IMG/VR virus record: IMGVR_UViG_3300036761_003567
Coordinates: 32,001-96,000 of that record
DNA from: a virus
DNA: 64,000 nt
Reading direction: 5' to 3' (one strand)
The notes under the pieces: model-generated
Seen by the model: only the letters and a program-made list of their open reading frames with translations
The model's database searches: none
Told to the model about the DNA's origin: nothing
Shown: in pieces, positions 3,130-37,465 of the stretch
Layout: each line of letters begins with the position of its first letter
Numbering within the stretch: the stretch's first letter is position 1
Made by a program: the position numbers and the translations under genes

Positions 3130-3747
3130 ATGAAGGTGGAAGAACTCAAGTTTGGCGCGAAAGCCAAGGTCGTTAAGACGCTAGATGGCCTATCAGATAA
3201 AAGAAGATCTTCGTTTATAGGCCAAATCGGAGTCATCGTTGGCTTCTTTGCCCTAGATAACGCCATCGATAAAAAGACGAGATTCTCCGTCTCCCTGCGA
3301 TTTGATAACTCCTTAGGCATTGAAGAGTTCGATATGTGTGAGCTCGAACTAGATGCCGGTCCAGATGCCCTAATAAAAGCGATTGCAGAATTGGGCGGAA
3401 TCGAACAGAATAATAAGGTTTTCGTCGATGTGGCCGGTAAAGGCGATACGACGACAATTTCGAATGCTCTTGAGATAGTCCAGACTCAGCCATGGCTGGC
3501 CAGCGGAGCAATCCAGCCCATCGGAATAGCAGCTCAGCCCATCAAGCCAGGCGAGAGCGGATTCGTGAAGTTATTCGGCACTTTTGCAGAGGAGACGGAC
3601 CCTGAGAAATTAAAGAAAATGTCTGACCAATTCGGCTACGCAGGGGCTGTCGGCATCGACGGATTCGGCAACCCGATCGTCATCCCTCCGAAGCGTCCAC
3701 AGAAAAATAAGCCAGGCGAACTCGGGGAGAGAAAAGTCGAGGCATGA
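3130..3747 (+). CDS. Patchwork protein: SH3/KOW-like N-terminus, virion-like motifs, C-terminal PGELGERKV tag
   Basis: ATG 3130 just after GTATTTCA; VDVAGKGDTTTISNAL, IGIAAQPIKPGESGFV. Confidence 0.7.
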   Translation: MKVEELKFGAKAKVVKTLDGLSDKRRSSFIGQIGVIVGFFALDNAIDKKTRFSVSLRFDNSLGIEEFDMCELELDAGPDALIKAIAELGGIEQNNKVFVDVAGKGDTTTISNALEIVQTQPWLASGAIQPIGIAAQPIKPGESGFVKLFGTFAEETDPEKLKKMSDQFGYAGAVGIDGFGNPIVIPPKRPQKNKPGELGERKVEA

Positions 3748-3748
3748 C

Positions 3749-4030
3749 ATGCTTGGATGGTTATGGCGAAAGATAGTGGGGCAGCCAAGGCCTCTAGAGG
3801 TCAAGCTGACGCTCAATATTCCGCAAGGCGTCATCCACGTGAGGCATCACTTTGATAGAGAAGGATCCGCGGCTCAAAAGGCAGCGATACGACCAGGACC
3901 TGGGAATTCCCAAGGATCTATGGCCGATCCTTCTGCCGGAACCCGCGCGGAAGACTTGCCGATCGAATCGCTCTTCAAAGGCCAGAACCTCCCCGAAGTC
4001 CAGCTCGGCCAAGACACCGACGGCAAGTAA
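3749..4030 (+). CDS. Hypothetical protein upstream of the actin-like gene
   Basis: 93 aa, tightly spaced. Confidence 0.55.
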   Translation: MLGWLWRKIVGQPRPLEVKLTLNIPQGVIHVRHHFDREGSAAQKAAIRPGPGNSQGSMADPSAGTRAEDLPIESLFKGQNLPEVQLGQDTDGK

Positions 4031-4262
4031 GCCAGCACCAATAAGTATTTCAGATCCGATAACAAGAGCCCTGAAAGCCGAGGGCTGGACTCCTGGGAAT
4101 CTCAAGGTCATAAAGGACAGACACTTCGTACCGAAAAGCAAGATCGTAAAGGACAGGGAGAGGCAGGAACTCGTAAAGAAGACGGCTTATCTGATCACGA
4201 AGCCGCCGAGAGGCTTTGCAGAATATCAGAAGAACGTAGAGACCATTTTCAGGAGCGGTACG

Positions 4263-5267
4263 ATGGAACGCCTAGGACTTGATATGGGGACGAAGAACAT
4301 CGTCCTCGCCTATAAGAAGGACGGGCAGGTCTGCTTCCGTCGAGAGGTCAACGGATTCATTTCCGTGGTCAAGCAGGATAACTTCACCAAGGAAATGCTC
4401 GTCCAGTCGCAGGTTCCCTTCATCGAGCGGGACAAGGACTTTATCGCCATCGGCAGCAAGGCGGAGGACCTGGCCTACTCGTTCGGTAAGGAGCTCCAGA
4501 GACCGATGGTCAATGGAGTGCTCTCGGTCACTGAGCGGCAGGCGATGTCCATCATGGGCGTCATCGTGAAGTCCATCATCGGGAAGCTCAACGACGACGC
4601 CATCCTGTGCTACTGCATCCCAGGCCTGGCTATCAACCAGGACGTGAACGTCGACTTCCACAACAAGGTCATCCAGGCGATCCTGGCGTCCTTCGACGTC
4701 AAGGTCAAGCTCAAGGGAAGCTCGATCAACGAGGCACGCGCCATCGTCATCGCCCGCTCGCCGGACAAGGACAAATCCGGGATCGGCATCTCTTGCGGCG
4801 CCGGGATGATCAACATTTGCTACTGCCTCTTCGGCATTCCGGTCTACGAGTTCTCAATCGTCGGGGCCGGCGACTGGATCGATAAGGAATCCGGCAAGGC
4901 AACGAACGAGAGCCCCACGGCCATCGCCAAGGTCAAGGAGTCGCCAGAGACGCGGCTGGATGGCGGGATGCCCGCGGACTTCGTCCGCAGGGCGATCTTC
5001 CTGAACTACACGATCCTCATCGAGAGGATCGCCAAGAGCATCGCCGAGGGCTTCCGCAAGAACGAAGGCAAGGCCAGGGCGCCGAAGCCCATGCCCATCT
5101 ACATCGCCGGCGGGACTGCCTCCGTCGGCGGCTTCCTCGCGCTCTTCAAGGAAGTCTTCACGAAGCAAGAGATGCCGTTCCAGGTCGGCGAGATCTCGCT
5201 CGTGGACAAGCCGCTCTACGCAGTCGCCGAGGGGTGCCTCATCGCAGCCGAGAAGCACGAGGGATGA
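4263..5267 (+). CDS. Actin-like ATPase (MreB/FtsA/Ta0583-type fold)
   Basis: Phosphate-1 GLDMGTKN, connect-1 NEARAIV, phosphate-2 ISCGAGM, adenosine IAGGTA, connect-2 PLYAVAEG; AGGAG before ATG 4263. Confidence 0.85.
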   Translation: MERLGLDMGTKNIVLAYKKDGQVCFRREVNGFISVVKQDNFTKEMLVQSQVPFIERDKDFIAIGSKAEDLAYSFGKELQRPMVNGVLSVTERQAMSIMGVIVKSIIGKLNDDAILCYCIPGLAINQDVNVDFHNKVIQAILASFDVKVKLKGSSINEARAIVIARSPDKDKSGIGISCGAGMINICYCLFGIPVYEFSIVGAGDWIDKESGKATNESPTAIAKVKESPETRLDGGMPADFVRRAIFLNYTILIERIAKSIAEGFRKNEGKARAPKPMPIYIAGGTASVGGFLALFKEVFTKQEMPFQVGEISLVDKPLYAVAEGCLIAAEKHEG

Positions 5268-5289
5268 AAATCGTCCGTACTCATTGCGG

Positions 5290-5520
5290 AATGGCCCTGT
5301 GCCTCATTCGTATGGCCGAAAATGAGGCACGAACGGGGAGAAAGGCCATATTCATCTCGAAAGAGGCGTCCCTCGGACGGATGCGCGATTTCACGATCGC
5401 GGGAGGACAGCCGGTCCCCGGCGGGGAGGAGTCCGGGCCGGAATCCGTAGGTAGCCAGTGATTGCGCTGGCCTGATTGAGCGCCCCGAATCCGGCCATCC
5501 GTCCGAAGGACGCCTACTTG
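5290..5520 (+). promoter_or_regulatory. Structured 5' leader of the dnaE N-terminal gene
   Basis: 20-bp stem 5364-5383/5496-5515 with one mismatch; hairpin 5299-5308/5321-5330; inner hairpins. Confidence 0.5.
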
Positions 5521-5528
5521 GGTGATGC

Positions 5529-6878
5529 GTGGCAGACCCGACTGACCGAGACAAGCAAATCGAGGCGGCCGAGAAGGCCTACCCAGGCCCGAAGGACTTC
5601 GTCCACCTCCATTCTCATTCCGTATTCTCGCCATTGGACGGCCTTCCTGATCCTGAGGATTACGCCAAGGAATGTCAGCTCCGCGGATTCCCTGCTATGG
5701 TCCTGACGGACCACGGCAGCATGGGAGGAATTCCGGATGCCTATCTGGCTGCAAAAAGCGCGAAGGTAAAGTTCATCGCGGGCTGCGAGATCTACTTCAA
5801 CGACAAGCACCTCGAGTGGGCAGAGAAACAGAAGCTCGGTATTTCTATCGGCACCATCAAGGCGCAGGACGCAGAACTACGCGACGAATATGTCCGCAAC
5901 AGGCACGTGACCGTGCTTACGAAGAACATGGCCGGCTACAGGAACCTGGTCATGATGCTCACGAACGCCTGGGAAATCGGGCATTATTACAAGCCCAGGA
6001 TCTGGCTGGACATCATGAAGCAGCACCAGGAAGGTCTAATCATCCTGTCCGGGTGCCTGAATGGCCCTATCTGTCATTATCTCCGGAAGGATAATACGAA
6101 GAAGGCGATGGAGTACATCAAGAAGTTCAAGGACATCTGGGGAGATGACTATTACCTCGAAGTCCAAATGCCTGGTAAGGAAATCCCGGACGGCGTAAAG
6201 ACCTTCATCAAGCTCATGACCATCGCGAAGTCAGTAGGCTTCAAGGCAGTCCTGACGAACGATACGCATTACCTGAGGCGGGAGGACTTCCAGGTCCAGA
6301 AGCTCATGATGGCCATCGACCAGAAGCTGAGGGTCGATGACCCGAATCTCTTCCACGTGAATTCGGACGAGCAGTTCTATAAGACGCGGGCGGAACTAAG
6401 GCAGACTTTCCAGGAACAGGGGTACGCCTATGGCGGACACATTACCCTGAAGGACTTCGAAGCCGCCTGTGATAACGCGCTAGAGGTCGCCCAGAAATGT
6501 GAGGGCTTCAAGCCGGACACGAGCCTGAAGCTTCCGGAAGTGCCCGACGCGGATAAACAGCTCGTCGCCCTGACGCTCCAGGGGCTCCGCCGGATCAATA
6601 AGCATGAAGATGAGGTCTACGTCGCCCGTGCGAAGCGGGAACTCAAGATGATCATCGAGAAGGGCTTCAGCTCTTACTTCCTCATCACGCGGGATCTGAT
6701 CGCCCACTCAAGGAGCCTTGGCTTCGAAGTGGGGCCTGGTAGAGGCAGCGTGGGAGGCTCGCTCGTGGCGTATCTAATCCAAATAACGACGATAGACCCC
6801 ATCGTATTCAAGCTCAATTTTGAAAGGTTCATCAGCCCGTCGCGCGGCGGCAACCTCCTTAGGGTGACCATGTCATGA
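5529..6878 (+). CDS. dnaE: DNA polymerase III alpha (DnaE) piece A: PHP domain plus N-terminal palm
   Basis: FVHLHSHSVFSPLDG, LTDHG, GCEIY, YYKPRI, TNDTHY, GPGRGSVGGSLVAY, FERFISPSR; stops before PDID. Confidence 0.95.
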   Translation: MADPTDRDKQIEAAEKAYPGPKDFVHLHSHSVFSPLDGLPDPEDYAKECQLRGFPAMVLTDHGSMGGIPDAYLAAKSAKVKFIAGCEIYFNDKHLEWAEKQKLGISIGTIKAQDAELRDEYVRNRHVTVLTKNMAGYRNLVMMLTNAWEIGHYYKPRIWLDIMKQHQEGLIILSGCLNGPICHYLRKDNTKKAMEYIKKFKDIWGDDYYLEVQMPGKEIPDGVKTFIKLMTIAKSVGFKAVLTNDTHYLRREDFQVQKLMMAIDQKLRVDDPNLFHVNSDEQFYKTRAELRQTFQEQGYAYGGHITLKDFEAACDNALEVAQKCEGFKPDTSLKLPEVPDADKQLVALTLQGLRRINKHEDEVYVARAKRELKMIIEKGFSSYFLITRDLIAHSRSLGFEVGPGRGSVGGSLVAYLIQITTIDPIVFKLNFERFISPSRGGNLLRVTMS

Positions 6879-7492
6879 CACAGGGTGCCATTGCTCTGAC
6901 ATCCGTGCCCCGAGACGAAATTGTGGCCATCAAGGCCCTCCTGGGTCAGGCCGTATCGACGCTCCGCGTCCTGACGATCCTGATCGGAAGCCCGAAGGAC
7001 TCCCCGAAAGAGAACGCGACCAAGATGGTCGGGCTCCTAGCCGTGTGGCCAGACATCGCGGACGAGTTTGCTGACGTCGTCCTCCAGCGGACCACCGTCC
7101 CAAACAACGCGGGTCAGACGACGCACAAGCTCATGCGCCGGATCGCGGATATCACGCTAGAGCCTCTAAAGGCTGCATTCGACGTCCTCCGCGACAGATA
7201 CAAGGACAGCCCTATCGTCGTCACTACGAACGACGAGCTCAAGACGAAGATCCTTTCGGCGCAATTTCCGACGCCGGAAGGACTGGTAGAGCCATTCGTC
7301 GATCGGGAGACCGACGGGTATCCTGAGGCGACTTCCGGCGTGCAGACCGTCGAGTCCGTCCGGAACGTACGCAGAGCCTATCTGGAAGCCATCGCCCGTG
7401 TCGTCCTCTGGGGGACTAGCAAGGATCCCCTAAAGGCGAACGAGGATGCGAGGCCGGCCTACGACGAGATCATGAAAGAGGTGAGAATATGA
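6875..7492 (+). CDS. Hypothetical protein within the dnaE locus
   Basis: 205 aa, ATGA coupling. Confidence 0.7.
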   Translation: MTQGAIALTSVPRDEIVAIKALLGQAVSTLRVLTILIGSPKDSPKENATKMVGLLAVWPDIADEFADVVLQRTTVPNNAGQTTHKLMRRIADITLEPLKAAFDVLRDRYKDSPIVVTTNDELKTKILSAQFPTPEGLVEPFVDRETDGYPEATSGVQTVESVRNVRRAYLEAIARVVLWGTSKDPLKANEDARPAYDEIMKEVRI

Positions 7493-7929
7493 GCTTGAAG
7501 CCGATGATCTATCTGGCTGCCTTCTCGACTACGGGTAAGTCTCCGGTGAATGGGAAGGTGGACACTGGCGTAGCCGTCTGCGTAAAGGCCGAAGACGAGA
7601 CCAGGACGTGGCTTCTGCCATTCTGGTCGGCGACGATGAACCAGGCGGTGCTCATGGGGTTGAGGTTCGGCATCTTGGCGATCAATCCCAGGAACCGCGA
7701 CTTCCTCCAAGTTACCACGGATAGTCAATATCTCGGGAACGTGCTGGCGAAGAAGGGAGACAAGTACGGGTTCAATCCGGACTCGAACGTCGAGCTCATC
7801 AAAGAGGCACGCGACCTTTGCGCTACCGCAAAGGATATGACATGCTTGGTGTGTAAGACTGACGTACTCATCGCCGAGCTCCGTGAGAAGATTCGCGTGC
7901 TCGGCAAGAAGAGGCTGGCGAATGTCTGA
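7489..7929 (+). CDS. RNase HI-fold protein, probably inactive
   Basis: TDSQY retained; YTDG replaced by YLAA and TNNRMEL by TMNQAVL. Confidence 0.65.
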   Translation: MSLKPMIYLAAFSTTGKSPVNGKVDTGVAVCVKAEDETRTWLLPFWSATMNQAVLMGLRFGILAINPRNRDFLQVTTDSQYLGNVLAKKGDKYGFNPDSNVELIKEARDLCATAKDMTCLVCKTDVLIAELREKIRVLGKKRLANV

Positions 7930-8308
7930 TTGGCAGAAGATCGCCGAATTCGCGCGCAAGAAAGTTGCAACGCTTTCCAAGGAGCATGCGACCCGGCTTG
8001 AATTCGAGATCAAGGAAATAGACAAACAGGGCGCGAACGACTACTGGATAAACCTGCTGAAGTCCATGCAGAAGTTCGAAGCGAACACCAACGGCCTCGT
8101 CCTTCCATTCCTCCTGGGCATCACGCCGGTCGACCCGGTCGATTGTGAATATGTTTTCAAAATTGATGAGACTGGTGAAGAAGATGATATTATGCGGCTC
8201 GTGCTAGACAATGGTAAGACAATATCGGTACCATCACGAGCGCTGATTAAGACGATAAATGGACCCATAATCGCGAAAGATTTGAAAGTTGAAGATGAGC
8301 TGACGTAA
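7922..8308 (+). CDS. dnaE: DnaE piece B: degenerate palm segment plus N-intein-like fragment
   Basis: RLEFEIKEIDKQG..Y...LLGITPVDP followed by Hint-like RLVLDNGKTISV...TINGPIIAKDLKVEDEL. Confidence 0.7.
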   Translation: MSDWQKIAEFARKKVATLSKEHATRLEFEIKEIDKQGANDYWINLLKSMQKFEANTNGLVLPFLLGITPVDPVDCEYVFKIDETGEEDDIMRLVLDNGKTISVPSRALIKTINGPIIAKDLKVEDELT

Positions 8309-9157
8309 AGTTGTCACATGTTTTAAATCTCTCTCTGTCATAACGCCAAAAGAATGGCGTTTTTTTGAGCACCACCGGCGTAATGCGGGTAATTTTCTCT
8401 TGCAAGATAGCCACATTGCGACACCCATGCGGTCTAAATTATTAGGTTTCTTGCCGGATATATATTTAGAATACTTTATTTCAATGATTAGGCGCTTATT
8501 AATCAGTAAATCTGGGACCATGAAGAATTCATTGCACTCTATTTGTAATGGTTCGTATCTTAGCGAGTGGACATCGCCTAATGATGCAAGAAGTTTTACG
8601 GCCTTCGCTTCCAGGGATGACTTAACTCTAAAAAGACCAAATCTGGTACGTATCGTTTGCACACGCGGCGATGTGGCAACGTAGTGCAAAGCGCTTATCT
8701 TTGACAAATGCTTTCTGTAATCGCCATAACGCATGTTGAGCGTGGCAATTCTTTTCCTGTTTGATTTTGGATTTTGAATAGAATACGCAACGCCGTAACG
8801 CTTCCGATGCGTCTTAATTATTCTCTCCCAAACGCCTGGTAGTTGAGTGTTGTGCGTAACGCCCAAATGTTCTTTTAGGGATTGCCGATAACGCGCATAC
8901 CCGGATTTGCTCTGCATGTAGTGCTCAGAGCCGTACCGTGACTTAAAAGTTCGCCTTCTATGGTCATCTATCTGTTTGTATATAGTCCTTTTGTCCTTAC
9001 AAATTCCATGCCTCTTCAAGGCGCGAACAACAGATGAGGTGCCGCATCCGACTCTTTCTGCTATCTGTATCTGTGAGAGGTTTTGGTCGACATACGCGTA
9101 TTTCAGATATGAAGAATTGAGCCTCTCACGCAAAGTTGACGTGGATTTTCTACCCAT
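8234..9157 (-). mobile_element. Free-standing homing endonuclease-like gene (HTH, RYGV-type repeats, TnsA-like PD-(D/E)XK nuclease) splitting dnaE
   Basis: AT-rich and antisense; SSLEAK...RYEP...VPDLLINKRLIIEIK; N-terminal LSQIQIAERVGC. Confidence 0.75.
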
Positions 9158-9169
9158 GGGGTATATTTG

Positions 9170-9313
9170 ATGAAGATTGTTAAGATAAACATCATTCGAG
9201 GGAATGTCCGGAAAGTCAGCGGTGGTGCCTATAACGCCAGCGGGATCACGGTCCTACCACAAGTCGGAATCCCGCACCGCGTTGAGTACCACGCTGACCT
9301 TCCGGACATATAG
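9170..9313 (+). CDS. dnaE: DnaE piece C: C-intein-like fragment plus DLPDI
   Basis: Manual translation MKIVKINIIRGNVRKVSGGAYNASGITVLPQVGIPHRVEYHADLPDI* (below the ORF-track cutoff). Confidence 0.7.
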   Translation: MKIVKINIIRGNVRKVSGGAYNASGITVLPQVGIPHRVEYHADLPDI

Positions 9314-11403
9314 ATGTGGATCTCCAGCCTGCCGCACGCCCCCTTATTAGGCAGTACGCCACAAAGAAATATGGGATGGAGAATGTCTGTAGCGTAGGCC
9401 TCTGGCAGACCTACAACCCAAAGCTCGCCTTGCAGGATGCGGCTCGGGCACTCGGAGCTGACCATCACGAAATCCTGAACATAACCAAGGAGCTTCCGGA
9501 AGACTTCGATGAAATGTCCAAGGAGGACGCACTCAAGGAGTTCGACGAGCTAGCCACTTACTATAAGGCGAATCCACACATCGTCGACATGGCTTATCGG
9601 ATCGTCGGCCGCATCAAGACGCAGGGCCGGCACGCCGGAGGCCTCATCATTTCGTCCGTCCCCATCAGGGAATATGTGCCCCTGATGAAGCTCGGCGGCG
9701 TGGAGTGGACGACGGCCTGGACCGAGGGCAAGAACACGCAGCTCAGCAAATTCGGCTTCGTCAAATTCGACATGCTCGGACTCAAGACGATCCAATACAT
9801 CGCCAACGCCTTGAAGCTCATCGAACAGAACCGCGGCGTCAAGATCGATTGGGAGAAGATCCCGCTGGATGATAAGGATACGCTTGCGCTTGCGGCCAGC
9901 CTGAAGACGGATTCGACGTTCCAATTCGATACGGATCTGGCCAAGAGTATCATCCTCCGCGGCGGCGTCAAGAGCTTTAACGATCTGATGGTCTATACGT
10001 CACTCGGCCGCCCCGGCCCCATGCCGCTTATTGAGAAATACGTAGAGCGGCGTGACGATCCGAAACAGACATGGCGGAATGAAATTCATCCGAAGCTGGC
10101 GGAAATACTTGGAGAAACGTTCGGCGTCTGCGTCTATCAAGAGCAGCTCCAGCAAGTCTGGATCGACGTCTGCGGCTTCACATTCGCGGAGGCAGAAGAG
10201 GCCCGCAAGATCATCGCCAAGAAATGGCAGGACAAGCTACCTGCACTCGGCCAAAAGGTCGTGAAAGGCGCGGTCCGATTGTTGGGCGGCAAGAAGGCGG
10301 AAGAGCTCTGGCAGACCATGGTCACCTTCGGCCGCTACGCCTTCAACATGGCTCACGCGACGGCTTACACTATCATTGCCTACCGGACGCTCTGGCTGAA
10401 GACGCATTACGCCCCGGAATGGTGGGCCGCCGTCATGTCGGACTGCGGTCGGGACAGGCTCGTCCGGTACATCGGGATCGCAAAGTCGGAAGGCGTTCAA
10501 CTGGGGACCCTCGACTGCAGGACGCTCACAGAGAGCTTCACGGTCTCGGGCGACAGAGTGCTGCCAGGCCTCAACCTGGTCAAGGGCATCGGCACGTCCT
10601 CCAAGAAGCTTGCGGAGAACAATGCCGACTACAAGTCCGTAGACGAATTCATCGAGAAGAACGGGAAGGGGCGCATCGTCATGGAGCGCCTCATTAAGCT
10701 AGGCGGCTTCGATAAGATCTTCCGGAACAGGAAGACGCTCTGGCTCTGGTATCTCTGGAAGCACGCCGGCGAGAAGCAGACGAAGGACCTGGTAAAGGCC
10801 ACGTTCGCCTGGCCGGAGAATCGCGTCGTCGCCGAGAGGCAGAAGCAGATCCAGGCCTTCAGAAAGCTTTACCCCAAGAAGAAAGTGCCGCCGAAGCTGG
10901 AGAACTGGAACCCGAAGATCGATCCGACGTTCGAGGATTTCGCCAAGAAGTTCAACGAAGACTTCATGGACCGGGAAATCCTAGCCTTTGAGAAGGCTCA
11001 TCTCGGGTTCTACTGGTCATCTCCTATGAGCCAGTTCGTGCACAAGAACCTGACAATAGCCCAGGCCAAGTACTCGAATAACCTGGAATGCGTCATCGAC
11101 TCTATTACCACGAAAAAGTCCGAGAAGACCAAAAACGAATATCTGAAGCTCACGATTACGGACGGCATCGAGACGGCGCCGCTCGTCGTCTGGTCCGATG
11201 CCTTGTCTGACAAGACGAACGCCGAGGCGCTTGCCGTCGGCGGAGGCATCTCCGTAAAGGTAGCCTGGTCAGACAAGTACAGGAGCTTCTCCATAGCTTC
11301 AGGGTCCATGATCATCCCGCTCATCAAGAAGGGGCTCGAGCCAGACGCGCCGGTTCTACCTGCCCCGGATGAATTAGAGGAAGCTTATGCTGCTGACGAG
11401 TAA
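9310..11403 (+). CDS. dnaE: DnaE piece D: catalytic palm, fingers, HhH and OB domains
   Basis: (I)DVDL, GRHAGG, KFDMLGL, GVCVYQEQ, YAFNMAHATAY; the frame is closed by TGA 7 codons upstream of GTG 9316. Confidence 0.93.
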   Translation: MDVDLQPAARPLIRQYATKKYGMENVCSVGLWQTYNPKLALQDAARALGADHHEILNITKELPEDFDEMSKEDALKEFDELATYYKANPHIVDMAYRIVGRIKTQGRHAGGLIISSVPIREYVPLMKLGGVEWTTAWTEGKNTQLSKFGFVKFDMLGLKTIQYIANALKLIEQNRGVKIDWEKIPLDDKDTLALAASLKTDSTFQFDTDLAKSIILRGGVKSFNDLMVYTSLGRPGPMPLIEKYVERRDDPKQTWRNEIHPKLAEILGETFGVCVYQEQLQQVWIDVCGFTFAEAEEARKIIAKKWQDKLPALGQKVVKGAVRLLGGKKAEELWQTMVTFGRYAFNMAHATAYTIIAYRTLWLKTHYAPEWWAAVMSDCGRDRLVRYIGIAKSEGVQLGTLDCRTLTESFTVSGDRVLPGLNLVKGIGTSSKKLAENNADYKSVDEFIEKNGKGRIVMERLIKLGGFDKIFRNRKTLWLWYLWKHAGEKQTKDLVKATFAWPENRVVAERQKQIQAFRKLYPKKKVPPKLENWNPKIDPTFEDFAKKFNEDFMDREILAFEKAHLGFYWSSPMSQFVHKNLTIAQAKYSNNLECVIDSITTKKSEKTKNEYLKLTITDGIETAPLVVWSDALSDKTNAEALAVGGGISVKVAWSDKYRSFSIASGSMIIPLIKKGLEPDAPVLPAPDELEEAYAADE

Positions 11404-11620
11404 GGATGGCATCGCCTGCGATCTATGCGGGAGAGAATACAAGCACAAGTTCTCGTATTACTCTGCGGAATTTACGAAGATCTCGGCCGACGCCGAGAAG
11501 AAGATCACTGGCCCAACGGAAGTGGACAAGAAGTATCTGAACCTGGACATCTGCCAGATCTGCTATGACGGCTTCGCAAAGAAGGTCGTAGAAGTCGCTA
11601 AGGCTAAGGGCATGGCCTAG
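11387..11620 (+). CDS. Small Zn-finger protein
   Basis: CDLC...CQIC. Confidence 0.65.
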   Translation: MLLTSKDGIACDLCGREYKHKFSYYSAEFTKISADAEKKITGPTEVDKKYLNLDICQICYDGFAKKVVEVAKAKGMA

Positions 11621-11629
11621 GAGATAAAG

Positions 11630-13903: not shown

Positions 13904-13918
13904 GGAGATTTAAATACC

Positions 13919-26231: not shown

Positions 26232-26238
26232 ATATGTC

Positions 26239-28158: not shown

Positions 28159-29227
28159 ATTGATGTGCTCGGAGCATTCTTTTAAATTCAATTAACGCGT
28201 GATAGCTCCGAGCCAAATTGACCCACACGCATACCAATTGGATGTTATCCTTTAGATAGCCAGTCGAATTCTCTATCCTGTCGATGCTACAGGAATTTAG
28301 ATGACCTCCCTGGAGTCTCATCGGCACTTTCGTGATAGCGCATCGTCCTTTTTGACTCTTATAAAGATCACATAAGAAATCGAGCGTTAAGTTATGGTTA
28401 AAACCCTTTCGTCTTTTGAATATTTTGCTATGAATACGTTGTCTTATTACTCGGAATAAATGTCTGAAGTATGTTCTGATTTTGGTATCATTGGTATTGT
28501 ATTCCCGACCGCCGCCATTTCTAAACTGTTTTAGTGTTTCTCTAAATTCTCTGGCCGTATGTCTTCGACGGCCCAAATTTACCCATTTGCATACCAGTCT
28601 AATATTTCCTTTGTTATACCCCATATTGTTATCGATGCGGTCAATAGATACTGAAAGAAGATGTCTAAAGCAGTGTGTCATTTTAATGCCGGTGGCTTTA
28701 CATCTTCCATTTTGACGTTCCCATAGCTGCATTAGGTATTCAATGCCAAAATCGCAAGGTTTTCGTAGCCTTGCCAGAGCGGATCTGAGGAAGTTTTCCG
28801 GAGTGCTCTCTCTGTGCTGTTTTATGGAGTCGTTGTGCTGCCGTCGCCTAGCCGGGCTACTTTGCCTTTCTCTACTTTCTAGTCTTTTCTTTAATTTCCT
28901 ACACTCATAACAAATATTCTTGCGTTTTGGTCTGAAGCGGGATAACTCGGTAGTGCCACATACGTTGCACCTTGGGGTAAGATTAGTTTGGCTTCTTGAT
29001 AAATGTTCCCTTGCGCGGCACCCACAATGTGGCGGGTATGATTTTGCCACATAATTCACTTCTGATATGCACTTTACGCATTTATTACCACATTCGCAGT
29101 AGAATTTATAGAAAACGCGCTTTGGTTCATGTTGCATATGAAAAGGGCGACTCACCACTTTTAGATGGCCGACGATAGTACCTATCTTTAGTCGCCGATG
29201 CTGCGAATCTATTGGCAAAAAGTACAT
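28136..29227 (-). mobile_element. Homing endonuclease-like gene with two HNH-type domains
   Basis: AT-rich and antisense; two Q.GRC..T...M...SIDRI.N..GY...N..LVC.WVN units; CECG and CNVC Zn sites. Confidence 0.75.
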
Positions 29228-29234
29228 AGATGAT

Positions 29235-30221
29235 ATGCGCGTGCTATTACCACATAGACCCGGGGGCGCTTTCAGCTTCATATCAGATGGATGGCTCAAT
29301 GCCTTCATTGCCACGGGTCACCAAGCGCAACGCTGGGACGGCAAACAAAGCTCCTGGAATATATTTGATCCGGATCTGATAATCGCATGTTCTGGCCACC
29401 GCCAACCCATACCCGCACCGCGCGGCAGAACAAAATTGGCCGTCCATGTGAACCCTTACGGGCCAGAAAAAATTAAAGGCATTGATGAGCCACAGGAGGC
29501 TATAAACTGGACTCTCGCGCAACGGCCAGATGCCGTATTCGGATACGGCCACAAAGACGACGGGAGATTCTGGGAGTATTGGACTTCAAAACATGGCATC
29601 CCTTGGGTGCCGATGGCTACGGCCGGGGATGCCACTGTCTTCTACTCCAGGCAAGGTCTAACAAACGCCCCGGTGCCGCGCGACATCCCCATAGGGTACG
29701 TTGGCGGTCGCTGGGATTACAAGGCCAAGAATTTGGACAGATATCTGTTTCCCCTTTTCTCAAACAAGACGCTTGGCTGTAAGGTCCATGGCTGGGGCGG
29801 TTGGCAGCCCGGGATCAGCTCTGGTGTCATTCGGGACGAGGACGTGGCTGGTTTCTTTTCGAGATGCCGAGTCTGCCCCTGCGTTGCCGAACCCCATACC
29901 ACACAATGGGGTATAGACTTGCCGGAGCGCGTATTCAAGGTTATCCTCTGTGGCGCCCTGGCTATCCACGATCCTGTAAAGGGCCTGGAACGATTCTCGA
30001 CGAACATCGTCATGGCCAATGGCCCGATGGAATTCATAGAGCTCTGTGTCAAATGGTCCAGACCGGAGATGGAACCACAGCGGCAGGAACTCGCCCGGAA
30101 ACAGCGAAGGGACATATTAAACGGACACACTTACTTCCACAGGCTGGCAGGACTGCTGAGGACAGTAGGATTTGCAGGGGAGGCGGATAAGATGCTCGAG
30201 CACGCCAAATCAATAGTCTAA
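29235..30221 (+). CDS. CgeB-like glycosyltransferase (GT-B)
   Basis: IGYVGG, ERVFK..LCG, HTYFHRL. Confidence 0.8.
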   Translation: MRVLLPHRPGGAFSFISDGWLNAFIATGHQAQRWDGKQSSWNIFDPDLIIACSGHRQPIPAPRGRTKLAVHVNPYGPEKIKGIDEPQEAINWTLAQRPDAVFGYGHKDDGRFWEYWTSKHGIPWVPMATAGDATVFYSRQGLTNAPVPRDIPIGYVGGRWDYKAKNLDRYLFPLFSNKTLGCKVHGWGGWQPGISSGVIRDEDVAGFFSRCRVCPCVAEPHTTQWGIDLPERVFKVILCGALAIHDPVKGLERFSTNIVMANGPMEFIELCVKWSRPEMEPQRQELARKQRRDILNGHTYFHRLAGLLRTVGFAGEADKMLEHAKSIV

Positions 30222-30568
30222 GCCGGCTTCTCTTCCCTCTGTTCCGCTTCCAGCTTCGCCACGAGCTTCTTCAAGTCCACGAGCGGTACCTTCTCCAGTT
30301 TGATGCCCTCATCCAGGAAGGCAAAGTCCACTTTCTTCTTTCCGATCCCGTCCAAGACCTTCCGGAGGGCCGCCCCAGAGGCCTTCATCCAGAATTGGGC
30401 CTTTTGCTGGCTAAGCTTCCTACGATATTCCGTCGCAAGCCTGATGATAATGAGATCCCCATCCGCGAGGGAAAGCTTTTCTATTACGGACTTCAGGAGA
30501 GCATCCTTGACGTCGGGCGCTGGTTCGCCGCCAGGCAGATAGGGTGGTTTCGGAGATCCGTTGTTCAT
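30218..30568 (-). CDS. Hypothetical protein
   Basis: 116 aa; GTATTTCA upstream. Confidence 0.6.
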   Translation of the reverse strand: MNNGSPKPPYLPGGEPAPDVKDALLKSVIEKLSLADGDLIIIRLATEYRRKLSQQKAQFWMKASGAALRKVLDGIGKKKVDFAFLDEGIKLEKVPLVDLKKLVAKLEAEQREEKPA

Positions 30569-31118
30569 GGGGGTCCCTTTTGGATTATGCGTGTGAAATA
30601 CAGGTAGCCATCGCTATCGTCCTTGCGGACACGAGGATGTTGCCGATATAGAGTTCCTCGACGAGGACAGCCGGCTTGCTCTTGTCGCTATGGAACCAGG
30701 ATTTGGCAAGGAGGAGGGCTTCGTTGGGCCTATACTGTCTTTCTGAGTGCGACCAGGCGAGATTTTGTGGCAGGAACGGATGGCCTTCTATGCTCGCCAT
30801 CTCGCGGTAAGCCCTGTAGTATCGTTCCTCTTTTCCCGTTGGGATGAATTGTGATCTGTCGAGATGCGCTGCAATGAAGACCTTTCCATTACCTGTGCCG
30901 CACGGAGAACCCGTATACCTGACAGTGTAAATAAGGGTACCGGCGCTTTTCATATCACTTATATCGGAAGAGCTACAGATGACGTCTTCTTTGGACGGAG
31001 GGAAGAGAGAACCATCCCTGACGTCGGCCCCCAGCCGGACGGCAAAATGGCTGATTTTCATACAGACATTTAAAACAGACTTGGATTCTGCTGTCAATCA
31101 TTTGTGTATCTAATAAAT

Positions 31119-32115
31119 ATGGAACCACTTCGCCTCAGGCTCGTGAAGCAGGCAAAGGAAGAGGAATCAAAGTACTTTCAGAAGTATATCGTCATCAAGA
31201 GAGAGAAGATTGGCGGCCTATTTGCCAAGTTCATGAAGGCCGTCTTCAACGCAGACATCGGCCCCCGGGAAATCGAGACGTTCAAGAGTACGCTGGATGG
31301 CATGATGAATCTCCAGGGCCTCCACTATTTCGTCGTCAATCTGGATGAAAAAGAAGGCCGGGAAGCCATGATCCAGTACTGGCTCTTGAAAGGCTATCCT
31401 CGCGAAGAGATAGAGAAGTGCATCCCAAGTTTAAAGGAAGAAGCCAATGACCAAGCCAAAGGCAAAAGCTGAGCAGAAAAAGGAAGTCCCACCGTATCCG
31501 GTCGTCCCAGCAGACCTCCGGGAGATGGCAGGCCGGATTCAGTTTAGCCTGAAGCCGAGTCCCTTCGTAGCGGACAAGGCTGCGGACGACTTCGCTACCT
31601 TCGTGACAGCGAACATCAACCATAGCGCCCTCCGTATACTATCTCTGGAAGCTAAGATAAATGGCGACAACCCCACGGTTGCGATCCAGAAGGCGGATGA
31701 AGCCTTCGGCGGAGTTGCGGAATTCATTTTCGTACAATGCCCGTACTGCCACACCCCACTTCACATCATCGACAACATACACCTCGCGAATTGCCCCGAA
31801 GTCCAGAAGAAATATTCCGGCAAGACGGAGCTCTGGACGACTGGGCAGTGCCTGAAGGATTTCCCGGATACCCAGATGAGATCCTGGCTTGCTTCCTACA
31901 TTGCACATCTTTCAGTAATGGCGCCCGGCCCGGTTGCTGAGACGAGCCCGATTCCGCCGCGTCCGGCAGTCATCGACAAGCGCAAGGGGTTGAACGCGAT
32001 TCAGCCCAAGATCCGCGTCGTGGGGCAACCTATCCGGGTCCAGCCACAAGTTTCTGCGGTATCGCAGAGGAAGGGATTCGTACCGCCGCGGATGCAGAGA
32101 GGGTTCCGGAGGTGA
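31119..32115 (+). other. Two hypothetical CDS (31119-31472, 31447-32115; the latter has a CPYC..H..C Zn site)
   Basis: ORF track, overlapping ends. Confidence 0.55.
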
Positions 32116-32286
32116 TTACTTCTGGCTTTTGAAGAACTCGACTTCGCCTAGGCGCTTTACGGCTCCCTTTCTCGACGAAGACGTGCCGAGGTTCTTCCCC
32201 TTCTTGGATAGGACTCGCCATTTCTTGGGGCCGATCTTCTTGATGCGTTCCAGGATCACATCTTCGGTGAGTAATCTGAGCTTCAT
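32116..32286 (-). CDS. 56-aa small basic phage protein
   Basis: Manual translation MKLRLLTEDVILERIKKIGPKKWRVLSKKGKNLGTSSSRKGAVKRLGEVEFFKSQK*. Confidence 0.7.
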   Translation of the reverse strand: MKLRLLTEDVILERIKKIGPKKWRVLSKKGKNLGTSSSRKGAVKRLGEVEFFKSQK

Positions 32287-32460
32287 AAGGTAGCTTTGCT
32301 GTGATCACGCACAAGGAATGTCGGAAGAATCTCGGCGGATGCGGGCAGGTCAAACTGGTTGGAGAGTTTGGCGTGGACATCAAGAACTGCGATGGCCGCA
32401 GAAACCTCTGCAAGATCTGCGCGAATGCAAGAAGAAGAGCGGCATACAAGACCAAAGGAC

Positions 32461-33009
32461 CTACCGAAGCTTCTGCGCCCCCGGCATGACCTCGAGCACG
32501 GCATTCTTCGCCCAATCCCAAATATCCAGTTTCAGGTCCTTTAGCCCCGATGACGTAATGGGATAATTCTGGGTCTCCACCACCTTCTCTTTTTCCATCG
32601 CTTGCACAACCATGATTGGGCCCGCTTGCACGCGCCTTTCTTTATTTAGAACACCGAAGATCGTCCTTGCCAGGAAGAGAGGTATGCTCTGCGTAGCCTG
32701 TTCCGCCTTCCGCATGATATCCGCCCACTTTTCATCCCTCGTTTTCTGCTTACCGGGCTTACCCGTTCCAAGGCTTATGAGATAAGTCCTCTCCGCGACG
32801 GATCTGCCACCGGCTCCGGCGCTTACGCGGCATCTTATGACGTCGTCGCGGATGGTGTCGCTAACGGGGCTGGGCCAGTTAAACTGGAATGAGTGGAAGT
32901 CCTTTCCAAGTCGCTTAATCCCAGAGAATACTTCACTCTCCAGAATTCTGGCGACTTGGATAATGTCTATCTGGCCTGCTTCGGCTTCATGTAAAAGACA
33001 AAGTCTCAT
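32461..33009 (-). CDS. Hypothetical protein with N-terminal MRLCLLHE motif
   Basis: Start reassigned to ATG 33009, downstream of CAAATATAC. Confidence 0.55.
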   Translation of the reverse strand: MRLCLLHEAEAGQIDIIQVARILESEVFSGIKRLGKDFHSFQFNWPSPVSDTIRDDVIRCRVSAGAGGRSVAERTYLISLGTGKPGKQKTRDEKWADIMRKAEQATQSIPLFLARTIFGVLNKERRVQAGPIMVVQAMEKEKVVETQNYPITSSGLKDLKLDIWDWAKNAVLEVMPGAQKLR

Positions 33010-33072
33010 AGCGTATATTTGGATCCGTCGGCCATCTTCTTTGTATTTAAGAAACGGAGCGGGAAAGATACA

Positions 33073-33782
33073 ATGAAGGTTCCCAAGCCAGTAAGACGTC
33101 TGATCTGCCAGATCTTCGGCCACCGATGGAAACTGATGCTGGACAAATGGGACAGGCCATGGCCGCTCTATTGCGTGCGTTGTGAGACGGCAGACCTGAA
33201 TACTAGGCTATTCAGCATACGCCAGATAAGGGATAGGTGGCTCTGGAGGAAGAAGCGAGGCCTTCCGAATGAATTGGCCGACCGCGGAGACACGATAGAG
33301 TTCCTGGAGCAGGAATGAGCAAGATAGTCGTCCTGCATGACAAAGAACCGACCCGGTGTCTGGTGGGTACCATAAACCTGAACCAGGACGGGCAATTTCC
33401 TGTCTTCGCCGCGGACTATCGCCAATCGGCGAACCAAGAGAGCGCAAGCAAGCTTCTTCGGTTCCTGTCCGGGCAGCGATTCATCATCTTAAGGATCTTC
33501 AGCAGTACCTACCACGTGTTCGTCGATGAGGATGTGGCGGTCCCGGTCGCGATCGATGGGAAACTCTGTGCCATAAACTGGCACTTAAATTATCAGCCCA
33601 ATGAACCAGATCACGTTGCGTTTTTCAAAGCTCTTTTGGAACACGGAAGCTGGGTCCTTTGCGTCGTCACCCAAGACAAGGTCTTGCGGACCGTCATCGG
33701 ACCCCGATGCCAGGTAATTACCTCCAGTACCGTGGACGCCACGTTTGAAAATACGGAGATTTTCGATCGCATTAGTACATAG
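33073..33782 (+). other. Two hypothetical CDS (33073-33318 DUF1660-like C.IFGH.W..C.RC; 33315-33782)
   Basis: ATGA coupling. Confidence 0.55.
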
Positions 33783-34048
33783 GAGCCAAAATGCCGAAGA
33801 CAACGGAAGACCGCCGGATTCTGATCATGGCCCGCGATTTCCTACAAGATGGGATTCAGGGAAATCCGGATGCCGGAGACGTTGCTACGATAGTAGATTG
33901 GGACAGGTATGACAAAGTTATGTTGAATATCAATGGTTATCTGAACAAGACCCAGAAGAAGGCGAGATGATGGAAGAAGAACTTTTTAGATATCAGGTCC
34001 TGATCGTAGTTCTCGTCGTGAGCATTATTCTCATTGTCATAGACCGCT

Positions 34049-34501
34049 TCAGAAAGAAATAACCCGATTACCGAGTTCGCCGATCGGACCAGAAACCGTC
34101 TCGCCCGCCTTCTTCCCGTCCAGACGCCATTCCTTCCCGTCCCAGACCAGCACGCCGAATCCCTGGATGGAGATCTTCTTGCCAAGGCCCTCTGCAGTCA
34201 GCGTGACCTCCCTGACCCCATTCACGGGGGCGGAAGAGACGGAGACCTGGACCGCCTGAGGTGAATATTGGCCCTGATTACCCAGACCCTGCAATCCCAC
34301 AGAACCCTGCCAGCCTTGATAACCCGGCGGGCCGACAAACCCTTGAACGCCTTGAGAAGGGCCAGGGTAGATATCATCATCTGGAGCAAGCGGATTCCAG
34401 TTGGGATTGACGGCTCCGGGAGCTGTAATTGGCTTCGCCTTTCCGGCAAGAAAACCCTTCTTGCCAGTCAGCTTCTTGATGAGGTCTGCGAGCGGGCTCA
34501 T
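34049..34501 (-). CDS. Patchwork protein with collagen triplets, a tail-fibre-like motif and C-terminal PIGELGNRVI tag
   Basis: GVQGFVGPPGYQGWQG, GVLVWDGKEW. Confidence 0.65.
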   Translation of the reverse strand: MSPLADLIKKLTGKKGFLAGKAKPITAPGAVNPNWNPLAPDDDIYPGPSQGVQGFVGPPGYQGWQGSVGLQGLGNQGQYSPQAVQVSVSSAPVNGVREVTLTAEGLGKKISIQGFGVLVWDGKEWRLDGKKAGETVSGPIGELGNRVISF

Positions 34502-35460
34502 GTCGGATCCACCTTTCTGCCTCCCATCTTGCCAAGCGGCAATCCCGACGGTTTATCTATGACCGCGGGAGGGGAGAGCGGATTACCAAAAGCAGGCAAT
34601 TGCTTATTCTGGAGTTGTAGGATGCCCAGCTGTTGCAGTTTTTGCAGAGTTGCAAAGTCGCAGTTCTTCAAGACATCAGCTAGAGTTGCGGGCGAGACCT
34701 GGGACGGAGCCGCCCCCCCGATTTTATAATCATCTTCTGGCGCATATAGGGAATTTTGCAATTTCTGATTCATGAGGACTAGCTGCTGCTTCAAATCAAC
34801 TGCCTCTTCCTCTTTTATTTTGGCAACCTTCTTGGCTTCTTCTGATTCGTAGAGGACCTCCGGTAAGATGATCTCTACGCCCCTCAGGCTGAACGTACCC
34901 TCAAATGTGTCCTCTGGATCTGTTCCTTCGCGCGTGATCAGGACATAAACGGATTTGTCGCTTTTGTCGCCTATTATCTTGATGTTATCAAAAAGAATTT
35001 GACTATTCCAGCTGTCTTGGACAGGGACTACCTTCCTGATTATCTGTGCATTCTCGTAGGGAGACCCCATGTTCGTTATCTTGACGTGAAAGACCATCTG
35101 CTTGTTCTCGAGCGACTCTGCGATTTTTACTATGTCCGTATCCTGATCATCCTTGGGCAGATCCATGATCTTGGCGATGCAGGACGGACCAAAGTCCGAA
35201 TTTATGTGTCCGTTAAGCACCACGCGTATTGTGGTCCATTTCTTACCATCGCTCTTGAACAATACCCCCGCCGCGCTCTGCTTCTTGGAATAGAAGAGCA
35301 TATCCCCGTTGCTGTGAAGAGGCGGGCCCTTGTCGCCAAGTTTCTTGGTCTGGGGCTGGAGATCTTTCGCTTTAAAGGAATAACAGCCATTTGCGGCCTT
35401 GTTCTGGCCTTCCTGCCAGCCCTGGGCTCCAGCCCAACCAGATAGAGGCATGGGAGACAT
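34498..35460 (-). CDS. Patchwork protein with tail-like motifs and C-terminal PLGKMGGRKV tag
   Basis: GWAGAQG, NGDMLFY..LFKSDGKKW, VKITNMGSPY; GTATTTAA upstream. Confidence 0.65.
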   Translation of the reverse strand: MSPMPLSGWAGAQGWQEGQNKAANGCYSFKAKDLQPQTKKLGDKGPPLHSNGDMLFYSKKQSAAGVLFKSDGKKWTTIRVVLNGHINSDFGPSCIAKIMDLPKDDQDTDIVKIAESLENKQMVFHVKITNMGSPYENAQIIRKVVPVQDSWNSQILFDNIKIIGDKSDKSVYVLITREGTDPEDTFEGTFSLRGVEIILPEVLYESEEAKKVAKIKEEEAVDLKQQLVLMNQKLQNSLYAPEDDYKIGGAAPSQVSPATLADVLKNCDFATLQKLQQLGILQLQNKQLPAFGNPLSPPAVIDKPSGLPLGKMGGRKVDPT

Positions 35461-35685
35461 GGCTTTTAAATACGAGACGGTGAATTATTGACGCCAAACG
35501 AATCCTGTGGTTTGATACCGTCATGGAAACAACCTGCCGATATTGTCGGGGCGTGGCCAGGCGTACGCGAGAGACATGGGACGGTGCCTATGTCTGGGTC
35601 TGTGAGGGCGTAGGTGGCCTGGGTGGGTGCAAGCGGAGGATGATCTACAACTTCCAGTACAAGCTCGTCGTCATCTCGCCAAGCA

Positions 35686-36180
35686 TCAAACCTCGCCAAG
35701 GGCCTTCTCAAGCCTCTGCCGCAAAGACTCCGGGTATCCAGCGCGTGATGGAAGCGGAGGCGGCTCCTCAGGAGCAGCCTTAGGGAGCGGAGGCGGCACC
35801 TCTGCCTTCTTCTCCGATGCTAGTTTCGCGACGACAGCCCGCACATCCTTCTCAATCGCGGCTTCCCATTCACCACGGACGTTGTTGTGCCAGAGATTCT
35901 TGGGGATCGTCACGCCACCCACTTCCCACTCCAGGACTTCTATTTCTGCCTTCTGGCCTGGAGCCGCAACCGCAACGCCATCCGCCGCGATAGGCCTCTT
36001 CTTACCGAAATCCGGCTTGTCGTGCTTGAGCTCGGCCCGCCAGTCCACCTCGATGATGTCGCCGACCGAGCGGTCATTGGTAAGCTTTACATCGAAGAAC
36101 GTCCGAGGATCGAGAGCCACCGCATGGCGTCCGGAAATGACTTCGCTGATCGCCTGTTCCAGCCGTTCCAGGAATGTCAT
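35686..36180 (-). CDS. Hypothetical protein
   Basis: 164 aa, coupled to the HAD gene. Confidence 0.6.
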   Translation of the reverse strand: MTFLERLEQAISEVISGRHAVALDPRTFFDVKLTNDRSVGDIIEVDWRAELKHDKPDFGKKRPIAADGVAVAAPGQKAEIEVLEWEVGGVTIPKNLWHNNVRGEWEAAIEKDVRAVVAKLASEKKAEVPPPLPKAAPEEPPPLPSRAGYPESLRQRLEKALGEV

Positions 36181-36773
36181 GTCTGATCTTTGCTAAAATA
36201 GGGGATTATGCTTCCGTTGTGTGCCTTATAGAGGACGGCATCAGGCCACTCCTTCCCGATCGCATCCAAGACAGTCGGCTCGTTATCGATCACGAACTTG
36301 GGTATGTAGTTCTTCCTCTTGATGGCATCCACCTTATATTCTGGCGCCTTCAGCATCCGCTGGCCTTCCGGCTTCAGGATGATATCCGTCAGCGGAATGC
36401 CCTTGAGCACTTTCATGGCGCTGTTGATCATCTTTTCCGGCCGGCCGGAGACGGCTACCACGGGGAGGCTTGACTTGCTGGCCAGGATACGGATGAAATC
36501 GTAAATGGCTCTATGTGGCGCATCCAGATGCGTGAAGGCGTCGTCCAGGAACATCTTGAAGAACTGACTGACCTTGTCCCTATCCTCCTGGGATTGCTTC
36601 GCCTTCTGTTTTAGGGCATCCAGCTTTTCTTCCCAGTCCTCGGGGGTGGCCTCGATGTCGAGCTGCCTGAGGGACTCTACTGCCCGATTCCCGACCGCGA
36701 CGAGGGTGTCGTCGATGTCGGTTATGATGACCTCGAGGCCGAGGACTTCACAGAGCAGACGTTCGAATGCCAT
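36177..36773 (-). CDS. HAD-superfamily phosphatase (PNKP C-terminal-like)
   Basis: DIDDTL, VSGR, YK, VIDNE. Confidence 0.75.
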   Translation of the reverse strand: MAFERLLCEVLGLEVIITDIDDTLVAVGNRAVESLRQLDIEATPEDWEEKLDALKQKAKQSQEDRDKVSQFFKMFLDDAFTHLDAPHRAIYDFIRILASKSSLPVVAVSGRPEKMINSAMKVLKGIPLTDIILKPEGQRMLKAPEYKVDAIKRKNYIPKFVIDNEPTVLDAIGKEWPDAVLYKAHNGSIIPYFSKDQT

Positions 36774-36802
36774 ACGGTACTTTTGGTTCGTATTTTAATT
36801 CC

Positions 36803-37465
36803 ATGGACGCGCCAAAGGTCAAGAAGTATCCCTTCATCGACGAGGTTGGTTATGTCCCGAATGAGATTATAAAGAAATGGGCGGGGGTCATAGGTAAAAT
36901 ACCCAAAGGGCCTCTGCCCAAAATCATCTCAAGCCAGGAAGAATTCGTAAAAGAGTTCGGCACACCCTCACCCGCAAATTCATTCGAGAAGAATTTTACA
37001 TTTCCCTTGCTCAAGAAAGTGAATCCCGGCGTGAATTTCTTCGCCGATAGTCTGGTCAGCGTGCAACCAATGCCGACACCGTCCATGAAAGGGCTGAAGG
37101 CAGCCTGGTCCGTAGAGGCTGTGGAAGACCTAAAGGCGGTTCACGGCATTGACATAGGAGAGCGACTTCAAGAAGAACTGATCCAGGCAATGTCCCAGCA
37201 GATGGCCAAAGAGGTCGATGAACAGATTCTTAAAGACCTTATAGAGCAGGTCCAGGAAGCGAAGCGTAGGGTGGCGATAAAGGCAGAGGAGAAGAGAAGG
37301 GAAGCCGTGTGGCGCAGTACTTTCAGCGTCATTGGCCGGAGATATTTGGACCCGGAAGAAATAAGAGCCGAAGAAGAGTCGGAAATCGAGACAGTGGAAA
37401 GAAAAGTCATCGTGGTCGTGCCGGACTTGCCGTTCGGATTAGGCTGTAGGCGGGTTCTGGTCTAG
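36803..37465 (+). CDS. Chimeric protein of terminase-, sheath- and major-capsid-like fragments with C-terminal PFGLGCRRV tag
   Basis: FIDEVGYVPN; GKIPKGP..IISSQEEFVKEFGTP; FPLLKKV.P..ADSLVSVQPM; LKAAWSVEAVEDLKAVHGID..EVDEQIL.DL. Confidence 0.75.
   Translation: MDAPKVKKYPFIDEVGYVPNEIIKKWAGVIGKIPKGPLPKIISSQEEFVKEFGTPSPANSFEKNFTFPLLKKVNPGVNFFADSLVSVQPMPTPSMKGLKAAWSVEAVEDLKAVHGIDIGERLQEELIQAMSQQMAKEVDEQILKDLIEQVQEAKRRVAIKAEEKRREAVWRSTFSVIGRRYLDPEEIRAEEESEIETVERKVIVVVPDLPFGLGCRRVLV

Follow-up and report, generated by a model that had tools for sequence, protein, structure and literature searches.

A conserved C-terminal tag on at least five unrelated proteins of an uncultured T4-like jumbo phage

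Shared terminal peptides that direct unrelated proteins to one place are known from encapsulins, microcompartments and secretion systems, and to our knowledge they have been described among phages for a few capsid proteins only. The targeting sequence of the T4 internal proteins and the scaffold and protease tails of HK97-fold viruses are terminal peptides that serve in procapsid loading, and among actin-like filaments the tail of ParR docks on ParM and that of arcadin-2 on crenactin. Here we describe a short C-terminal tag on at least five unrelated proteins of an uncultured T4-like jumbo myophage. Four are encoded in a 64,000-nucleotide (nt) stretch (hereafter the window) that corresponds to bases 32001-96000 of one 107,223-bp viral contig (IMG/VR record IMGVR_UViG_3300036761_003567), and the fifth lies further along the same contig. 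The estimated completeness of this contig (~29%, CheckV) implies a genome of roughly 370 kb, and a DNA-level comparison with annotated phages found no close one.

The tag has the consensus P-x-G-x-Φ-G-x-R-[KRV]-Φ-x-x(-x)-COOH and ends the following open reading frames (ORFs; lengths in amino acids, aa):

P0001: 3130..3747, plus strand, 205 aa; tag PGELGERKVEA at nt 3712-3744
P0002: 34049..34501, minus strand, 150 aa; tag PIGELGNRVISF at nt 34052-34087
P0003: 34498..35460, minus strand, 320 aa; tag PLGKMGGRKVDPT at nt 34501-34539
P0004: 36803..37465, plus strand, 220 aa; tag LPFGLGCRRVLV at nt 37427-37462; the weaker member
P0027: genome 101953-102294 (69953-70294 in window numbering, outside the window), 113 aa; fifth tagged ORF, same contig

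The first four had been picked out in a first-pass annotation of the window, which described them as unrelated proteins sharing a C-terminal motif, and all four translate and end exactly as quoted there. The fifth was found by scoring the ORFs of the contig with a matrix built from three tags, and its tail reads ...SAPFGQVGGRVLEA (...PFGQVGGRVLEA). As claimed, the bodies are not homologous: BLASTP among the tagged proteins returned no body match (all E > 0.04), and the recurrent local matches run tail to tail. None of the five contains a transmembrane segment.

The enrichment of the motif at C-termini, which the first-pass annotation had put forward for checking, is clear for three of the four window members. 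In the six-frame translation of the contig (107 kb), the core [LM]G.R[KRV][VI] occurs five times, and in four cases it lies in the last 14 residues of an ORF that is 50 codons or longer. We then ran a leave-one-out test, in which a matrix from three tags scores the fourth against two backgrounds, the 1,171 other ORFs of the contig and 15,400 ORF tails taken from foreign genomes. P0001, P0002 and P0003 each ranked first against the 1,171 other contig ORFs; against the foreign tails, P0001 and P0003 topped all and P0002 was equalled or beaten by one. The tag of P0004 is weaker (28 of the 1,171 contig ORFs score at least as high, and the alignment needs a one-residue shift) and is not significant on sequence alone.

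Metagenomic orthologues were recovered for all four families from P0001 to P0004, with 45-99% identity, and these homologues keep the motif. The tail is the best-conserved part in each family, near-invariant while the bodies diverge:

P0001 family tail: PQKN[KR]PGELGERK[VI]EA
P0002 family tail: GPIGELGNR[VI]ISF
P0003 family tail: PLGKMGGRKVD
P0004 family tail: PDLPFGLGxRR[VI]L

In IMG/VR, we sought close relatives of P0003, P0001 and P0002 and found none. Beyond this lineage the tag is absent from relatives, a complete 395-kb genome among them, and in two distant huge phages that both encode an actin (LR756511 and LR745208) it stands at no C-terminus, with pattern matches at the control level. 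No tags were found in the region of tail, neck and tube genes, either in this phage or in 80 relatives. The tag is thus real, enriched, conserved, selectively maintained and lineage-specific, and is carried by at least five unrelated proteins.

Could the likeness instead be fortuitous, or a signal in the DNA (e.g., a terminator) rather than in the peptide? The tag codons of P0002 (window 34061-34077, minus strand) do form a terminator-like 7-bp hairpin followed by the T-run ATTTCTTTCT. Since the end of P0003 overlaps the start of P0002 by 4 nt, these two genes belong to one operon, of which the hairpin may be the terminator, overlapping the tag. P0001 and P0002 are also identical at 11 of 12 nt over G-E-L-G, and the score of P0004 is not significant on sequence alone. 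However, the five tails differ in codons and in downstream DNA, and terminator-like sites are not enriched (7 vs. 3.9 expected); the leave-one-out ranks, and tails that stay invariant in orthologues at 45-70% identity, argue against chance. We consider both explanations largely refuted and extremely improbable.

Unrelated bodies, each ending in what is the best-conserved part of its family, fit the arrangement proposed in the first-pass annotation, i.e., a variable body plus a constant docking tag, and the tag is probably a short linear peptide with a generic docking function. Both that the tail binds anything and what it would bind we infer. Selection would keep the tag as a docking peptide on otherwise unrelated small proteins, and module shuffling would have spread it onto at least five proteins of one jumbo-phage lineage, so that all of them would be tethered to one common partner. 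A Pro-rich linker precedes the tag in P0001 and P0003, and these two proteins share ~48 alignable C-terminal columns, FGNP[IL] included (hhalign E 0.027), a likeness that suggests a shuffled module. The C-terminus of T4 gp23 was considered as the origin of the tag and found unsupported, as the capsid proteins of the clade end in ...GVVTVSNL.

Outside the tag, each protein has its own organization. P0001 consists of a conserved small N-terminal domain, a variable middle, the Pro-rich linker and the tag; the middle includes a degenerate cement-like piece whose match lies below threshold (E 0.014) and half of which is deleted in orthologues. P0002 has seven consecutive collagen-like G-x-y triplets followed by an invariant C-terminal domain of ~70 aa. 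P0003 is composed of a beta-rich N-terminal domain, a coiled coil, a conserved C-terminal module (...FGNPL...) and the tag, and its N-terminal domain has weak structural look-alikes among fibre-tip-like proteins (template-modelling, or TM, scores of 0.4-0.5). P0027 starts at a GTG that overlaps the upstream stop, with a Shine-Dalgarno sequence GGAGGAGG, in a tightly coupled operon within a 63% G+C part of the contig; neither a Pfam match nor, among the examined relatives, a homologue was found for it. The virion-like motifs announced in the first-pass annotation were thus recovered in part, with a solid gp23 segment in P0004 (see below) and the seven triplets of P0002, but the cement-like piece of P0001 is sub-threshold and not conserved, and as a general description a "patchwork of virion motifs" is solid for P0004 only.

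These body parts bear on a possible role at the virion exterior, where the tail would insert into a capsid or tail surface protein and the tagged proteins would be decoration fibres. A collagen-like P0002 with a small C-terminal domain, a P0003 that resembles a head-plus-coiled-coil fibre (on the same weak structural lead, TM 0.4-0.5) and the sub-threshold cement-like piece of P0001 all point this way. However, the promoter class of the tagged genes is non-late (see below), none of these genes lies within the structural modules, the cement-like piece is not conserved, and P0004 and P0027 are unlike decoration proteins, so that we hold an exterior anchor to be very unlikely.

P0004 is the member with a recognizable ancestry. 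Its residues 96-150 match the gp23 family (Pfam PF07068, 3e-10; 40.5 bits vs. a cut-off of 24.4) over profile positions 148-198 only, and also match T4 gp23 residues 257-308 in PDB structures. This segment corresponds to the E-loop strand and spine helix and is followed by a charged helix before the tag, and residues 20-93 align with the propeptide and N-arm of a full-length capsid protein found on another contig. Set against T4 gp23/gp24, the propeptide, N-arm and E-loop/spine-helix segments align in order, whereas P0004 is without the insertion domain and the C-terminal half and has the charged helix and tag instead. As no alignment extends past the spine helix, the HK97 fold is incomplete (P-domain sheet, A-domain), and P0004 is 220 aa long vs. 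506-549 aa for the capsid proteins of the clade. P0004 is a "mini-gp23", a truncated paralogue of the gp23 major capsid protein. Its AlphaFold model, one long helix with a predicted local distance difference test (pLDDT) score of 44, suggests a protein that is mostly unfolded when alone. A copy of P0004 is also present on a separate 285-kb contig.

Such a capsid-derived protein would be in place if the tag docked on the inner face of an HK97-fold shell and the five proteins were packaged as internal cargo, the shell being either the gp23-type procapsid of the phage or an encapsulin-like shell encoded beyond this fragment. C-terminal tails commonly dock on HK97-fold shells, as those of the HK97 protease and of the P22 and herpesvirus scaffolds do, and the architecture is that of encapsulin cargo, in which a short peptide stands at the extreme C-terminus, past a flexible linker, on several unrelated proteins. 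The cargo-loading peptide of Thermotoga maritima ends in ...GGDLGIRKL (PMC7565527) and binds through L-G-I hydrophobic anchors and terminal basic residues (PMC7925596). Its last eight residues, GDLGIRKL, fit the tag G-x-Φ-G-x-R-K-Φ at every defined position, and their tag-matrix score of 19.75 (random 8-mer probability 3.5e-6) exceeds all 15,400 foreign tails and falls within the leave-one-out range of the tags, although the peptide was picked for its resemblance and a look-elsewhere discount applies to this significance.

Several observations speak against such loading. The tags keep the first anchor, the Gly and the basic pair of the encapsulin motif, but the second hydrophobic anchor of "LGI" is not conserved (E, N, G, G or C in the tags), and the tags extend 2-3 residues past the motif. 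An encapsulin gene (PF04454) has no match on the 107-kb contig, which represents ~29% of the genome. Encapsulin cargo genes adjoin the shell gene, whereas the tagged genes do not and are not late-regulated either: they belong to a non-late promoter class and to the replication region, with no link to a head module. No tag came up in the 795 kb that surround the sheath, tail and neck genes in this clade, and in six relatives the scaffold-like proteins encoded next to the capsid gene carry an acidic tail, ...IDAIAEAMD, that is unrelated to the tag. The T4 internal-protein signal, which like the HK97-fold scaffold and protease tails is a short terminal peptide that loads unrelated proteins into the procapsid, differs as well in being N-terminal, binding the scaffold core and being cleaved. 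We therefore consider docking on a shell unlikely, and slightly more so the complete proposal, in which an encapsulin-type peptide would let a jumbo phage fill an HK97-fold shell with at least five unrelated proteins, a truncated version of its capsid protein among them. If true, a living link would exist between encapsulin nanocompartments and phage capsids, and the tag would be a natural, portable capsid-loading signal.

The promoter class invoked above is defined by a motif, GTATTTHA (H being C, A or T), which the first-pass annotation had placed before the tagged loci, and which is indeed present exactly 5 nt before the ATG in three of them:

GTATTTCA: 3117..3124, plus strand, 5 nt before the P0001 ATG; promoter-like
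GTATTTAA: 35466..35473, minus strand, 5 nt before the P0003 ATG
GTATTTTA: 36790..36797, plus strand, 5 nt before the P0004 ATG

Across the window the motif occurs at 21 sites (vs. 1.45 expected), and the arrangement GTATTTHA-N5-ATG occurs five times (vs. 0.02 expected), three of them at the tagged loci. It precedes many genes, including those for actin, UvsX, SSB and helicase, and is a general motif that is not restricted to tagged genes. Of the suggested co-regulation, what stands is the motif common to the three loci; about 20 sites in the window, among them those of actin, UvsX and SSB, speak against anything more specific, as does P0027, whose Shine-Dalgarno-coupled GTG start is without GTATTTHA. 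The spacing would put the transcription start at the A of the ATG, which fits a leaderless transcript. Sites are far sparser in the tail module (1 in 22.7 kb vs. 19 in 44 kb), whose genes are preceded by ordinary Shine-Dalgarno sequences, and this near-absence indicates that the motif marks a non-late class. Orthologues of P0001 have kept the motif upstream, translated as "...SYFI.MK" where an N-terminal extension was miscalled; the nearest relative (G006) has it too, and more distant ones show no enrichment. In addition, a palindrome, GTATTTAAATAC, at window 38582-38593 holds the promoter-like motif on both strands, with one copy 5 nt before an internal ATG of a kinase-like ORF (38128-38859).

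Expression along with non-late genes would also suit a degron or a docking site for a host factor, i.e., a protease or unfoldase of the ClpX, ClpA, Lon or FtsH type or a host hub protein, through which middle-phase proteins would undergo timed turnover or sequestration. The basic-then-hydrophobic end of the tag recalls the C-termini used by ClpX "C-motif 2" substrates and by adaptor tails, and P0004 is predicted to be mostly unfolded alone (pLDDT 44). The tag matrix, however, gives low scores to ssrA (-7), the MuA tail (-1.5) and the SspB tail (6.25); the conserved part of the tag is G-x-Φ-G-x-R, with the last two residues varying among orthologues; and no protease gene was seen among ~50 annotated ORFs. 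A degron or host-docking role thus seems quite unlikely to us. Analogies with clamp-binding peptides, FtsZ tails and WH2 motifs were rejected for low tag-matrix scores or the wrong chemistry.

The gene context of P0001 points to another partner, as it is followed by a small ORF and by an actin-like gene, with a fibre-like gene on the opposite strand upstream:

P0026: 769..2226, minus strand, fibre-like; collagen-like triplets, Cys-rich C-terminal part, Ser-rich tail
ORF93: 3749..4030, plus strand, small member of the volactin-partner family; tail ...LPEVQLGQDTDGK
Volactin-family actin-like ATPase: 3852..5267, plus strand; actin fold from ATG 4260 behind AGGAG

The actin gene matches the Pfam family Volactin (2.7e-61) with phosphate-1, phosphate-2 and adenosine motifs intact, and its N-terminal extension, with GTATTTCA at 4045, is at least partly coding. 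ORF93 starts 2 nt past the P0001 stop and lies between P0001 and the actin fold; its substitutions relative to close relatives fall mostly at third codon positions. Neither a terminator nor a sigma-70-like site was found on the plus strand from 2900 to 5500, and the three genes P0001, ORF93 and actin make up a single tight unit. Across the clade (G003, G004, G006-G008 and L022), P0026 is conserved next to the actin gene. As a separate observation, the N-terminus of ORF93, MLGWLWRKIV, could be an amphipathic membrane-targeting helix.

Volactin-type actins are common in phage contigs, with at least 545 matches in IMG/VR. To compare their neighbours, we surveyed the best 80 of these loci, along with 66 bacterial and archaeal loci (59 scorable neighbours). 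Most of the phage loci have a small upstream ORF (~75-90 aa) ending in ...W-x-I-P-D-F...K-Φ-x-F-G-K-[KR]-E, a partner family to which ORF93 and its orthologue in the nearest relative belong. In the cellular loci, the upstream neighbours carry clade-specific conserved tails, which fits what has been published for Haloferax, where the neighbour of volactin is a CdpA-like protein that has a linker and a small domain at its C-terminus (PMC12126565).

As a tentative best guess, then, the common partner of the tag would be the volactin-type actin filament of the phage itself. The tagged proteins would be adaptors or regulators whose tail docks on the filament, as the ParR tail does on ParM or the arcadin-2 tail on crenactin, while the variable body (with capsid-protein-like, cement-like, collagen-like or lectin-like parts) would bind something else. 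This reading rests on the operon context, on the shared promoter class (the loci at 3117, 35466-35473 and 36790 and the actin gene all have GTATTTHA) and on the habit of the actin family of having C-terminal-tail partners. Some natural partner tails share the Φ-G-x-[RK]-K spacing of the tag (...VKFGKRKEQE; ...GFGSR[VT] in the distant relatives G003 and G004), and the collagen-like P0002 and the coiled-coil P0003, the latter with a possible jelly-roll head (a weak lead), can be set beside the fibre-like P0026 of the actin module. The likeness to ParR-ParM, arcadin-2-crenactin and volactin partners lies in a conserved tail past a disordered linker on a small protein beside an actin-like gene, and here in P0001 sharing a unit with that gene.

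Several results weigh against docking on actin, and every direct test of similarity came out negative or weak. When this genome is scored with a matrix made only from 42 distinct partner tails of other phages, the tags do not stand out, cellular partner tails score at chance with the tag matrix, and the tag thus differs from the tails of these systems in having no significant likeness to any partner tail examined. The membrane-anchored partner in G003 and G004 does end in ...LKN-x-P...GFGSR[VT], resembling the ...QKNKPGELGERKV of P0001. This "KN-x-P...G-x-Φ-G-x-R" likeness was noticed post hoc, however, and failed an unbiased tail-to-tail alignment, which ranks the G003/G004 partner tails 59th to 6,422nd of 15,652. 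The "LGERVK" tail of one haloarchaeon was likewise rejected as chance-level, and the tails of cellular neighbours are not tag-like. Phylogenetically, G003, G004 and G006-G009, the complete 395-kb genome included, have the actin without the tag or the P0001-P0003 families, and the nearest examined relative, G006, has ORF93 and actin without P0001. The canonical partner is already present in ORF93, which, and not P0001, bears the partner-family tail, so that the tail known from one protein in described actin-partner systems would here be on five, with a canonical partner besides. Four of the five tagged genes sit 30-66 kb from the actin gene; P0001 is on its strand and in its unit, with ORF93 between the two. 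Finally, a ParMRC-type cassette would have a centromere-like repeat array, and no iterons were found upstream of P0001 (2200-3200).

The wider neighbourhood is that of a T4-like phage. The left end of the contig encodes a 973-aa tail sheath and a gp15-like sheath stabiliser, and further contigs of the same phage encode three tail-tube paralogues, a baseplate hub and a primase. A T4-like replication module occupies window 3.8-30 kb, with a split DnaE, UvsX, a DnaB-like helicase and a gp32-like SSB. Within it, DnaE (window 5529-11403) is in two parts, with an antisense gene of low G+C content (8234-9157) between them. A helicase gene at genome 26096-28972 is broken by an intein that contains a LAGLIDADG endonuclease (Pfam). 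A metallo-beta-lactamase-fold protein at genome 23987-24916 matches the anti-Pycsar Apyc1 family (PF23023, 4.8e-26) and is likely a counter-defence nuclease against cyclic nucleotides. Adjoining the Ser-rich P0026 is a glycosylation cluster (genome 29478-32761, i.e., just left of the window and window 3-761) composed of an NAD-dependent epimerase, a hydroxyproline O-arabinosyltransferase-like protein (PF23452, 4.9e-33), whose family is uncommon in phages, and a GT2 protein. Upstream of P0001, window 2438-3090 is a region of ~650 nt poor in ORFs with several long-range inverted repeats; it holds neither an Rfam family nor iterons, and its counterpart in G006 has a repeat array (GGTCAGCTTGCCCCTCAC...) and a minus-strand gene. 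An Rfam scan found zero families in the window.

Overall, the tag is present on at least five proteins, and only 29% of the phage genome has been read. If its partner is the phage actin, the phage would have a multi-cargo adaptor system, the first for a viral prokaryotic cytoskeleton, and if it is the capsid, head loading in phages would be connected with the cargo loading of encapsulins. In both cases, a tag peptide of 12-20 residues, which can be fused to GFP, offers a simple handle for a partner search.

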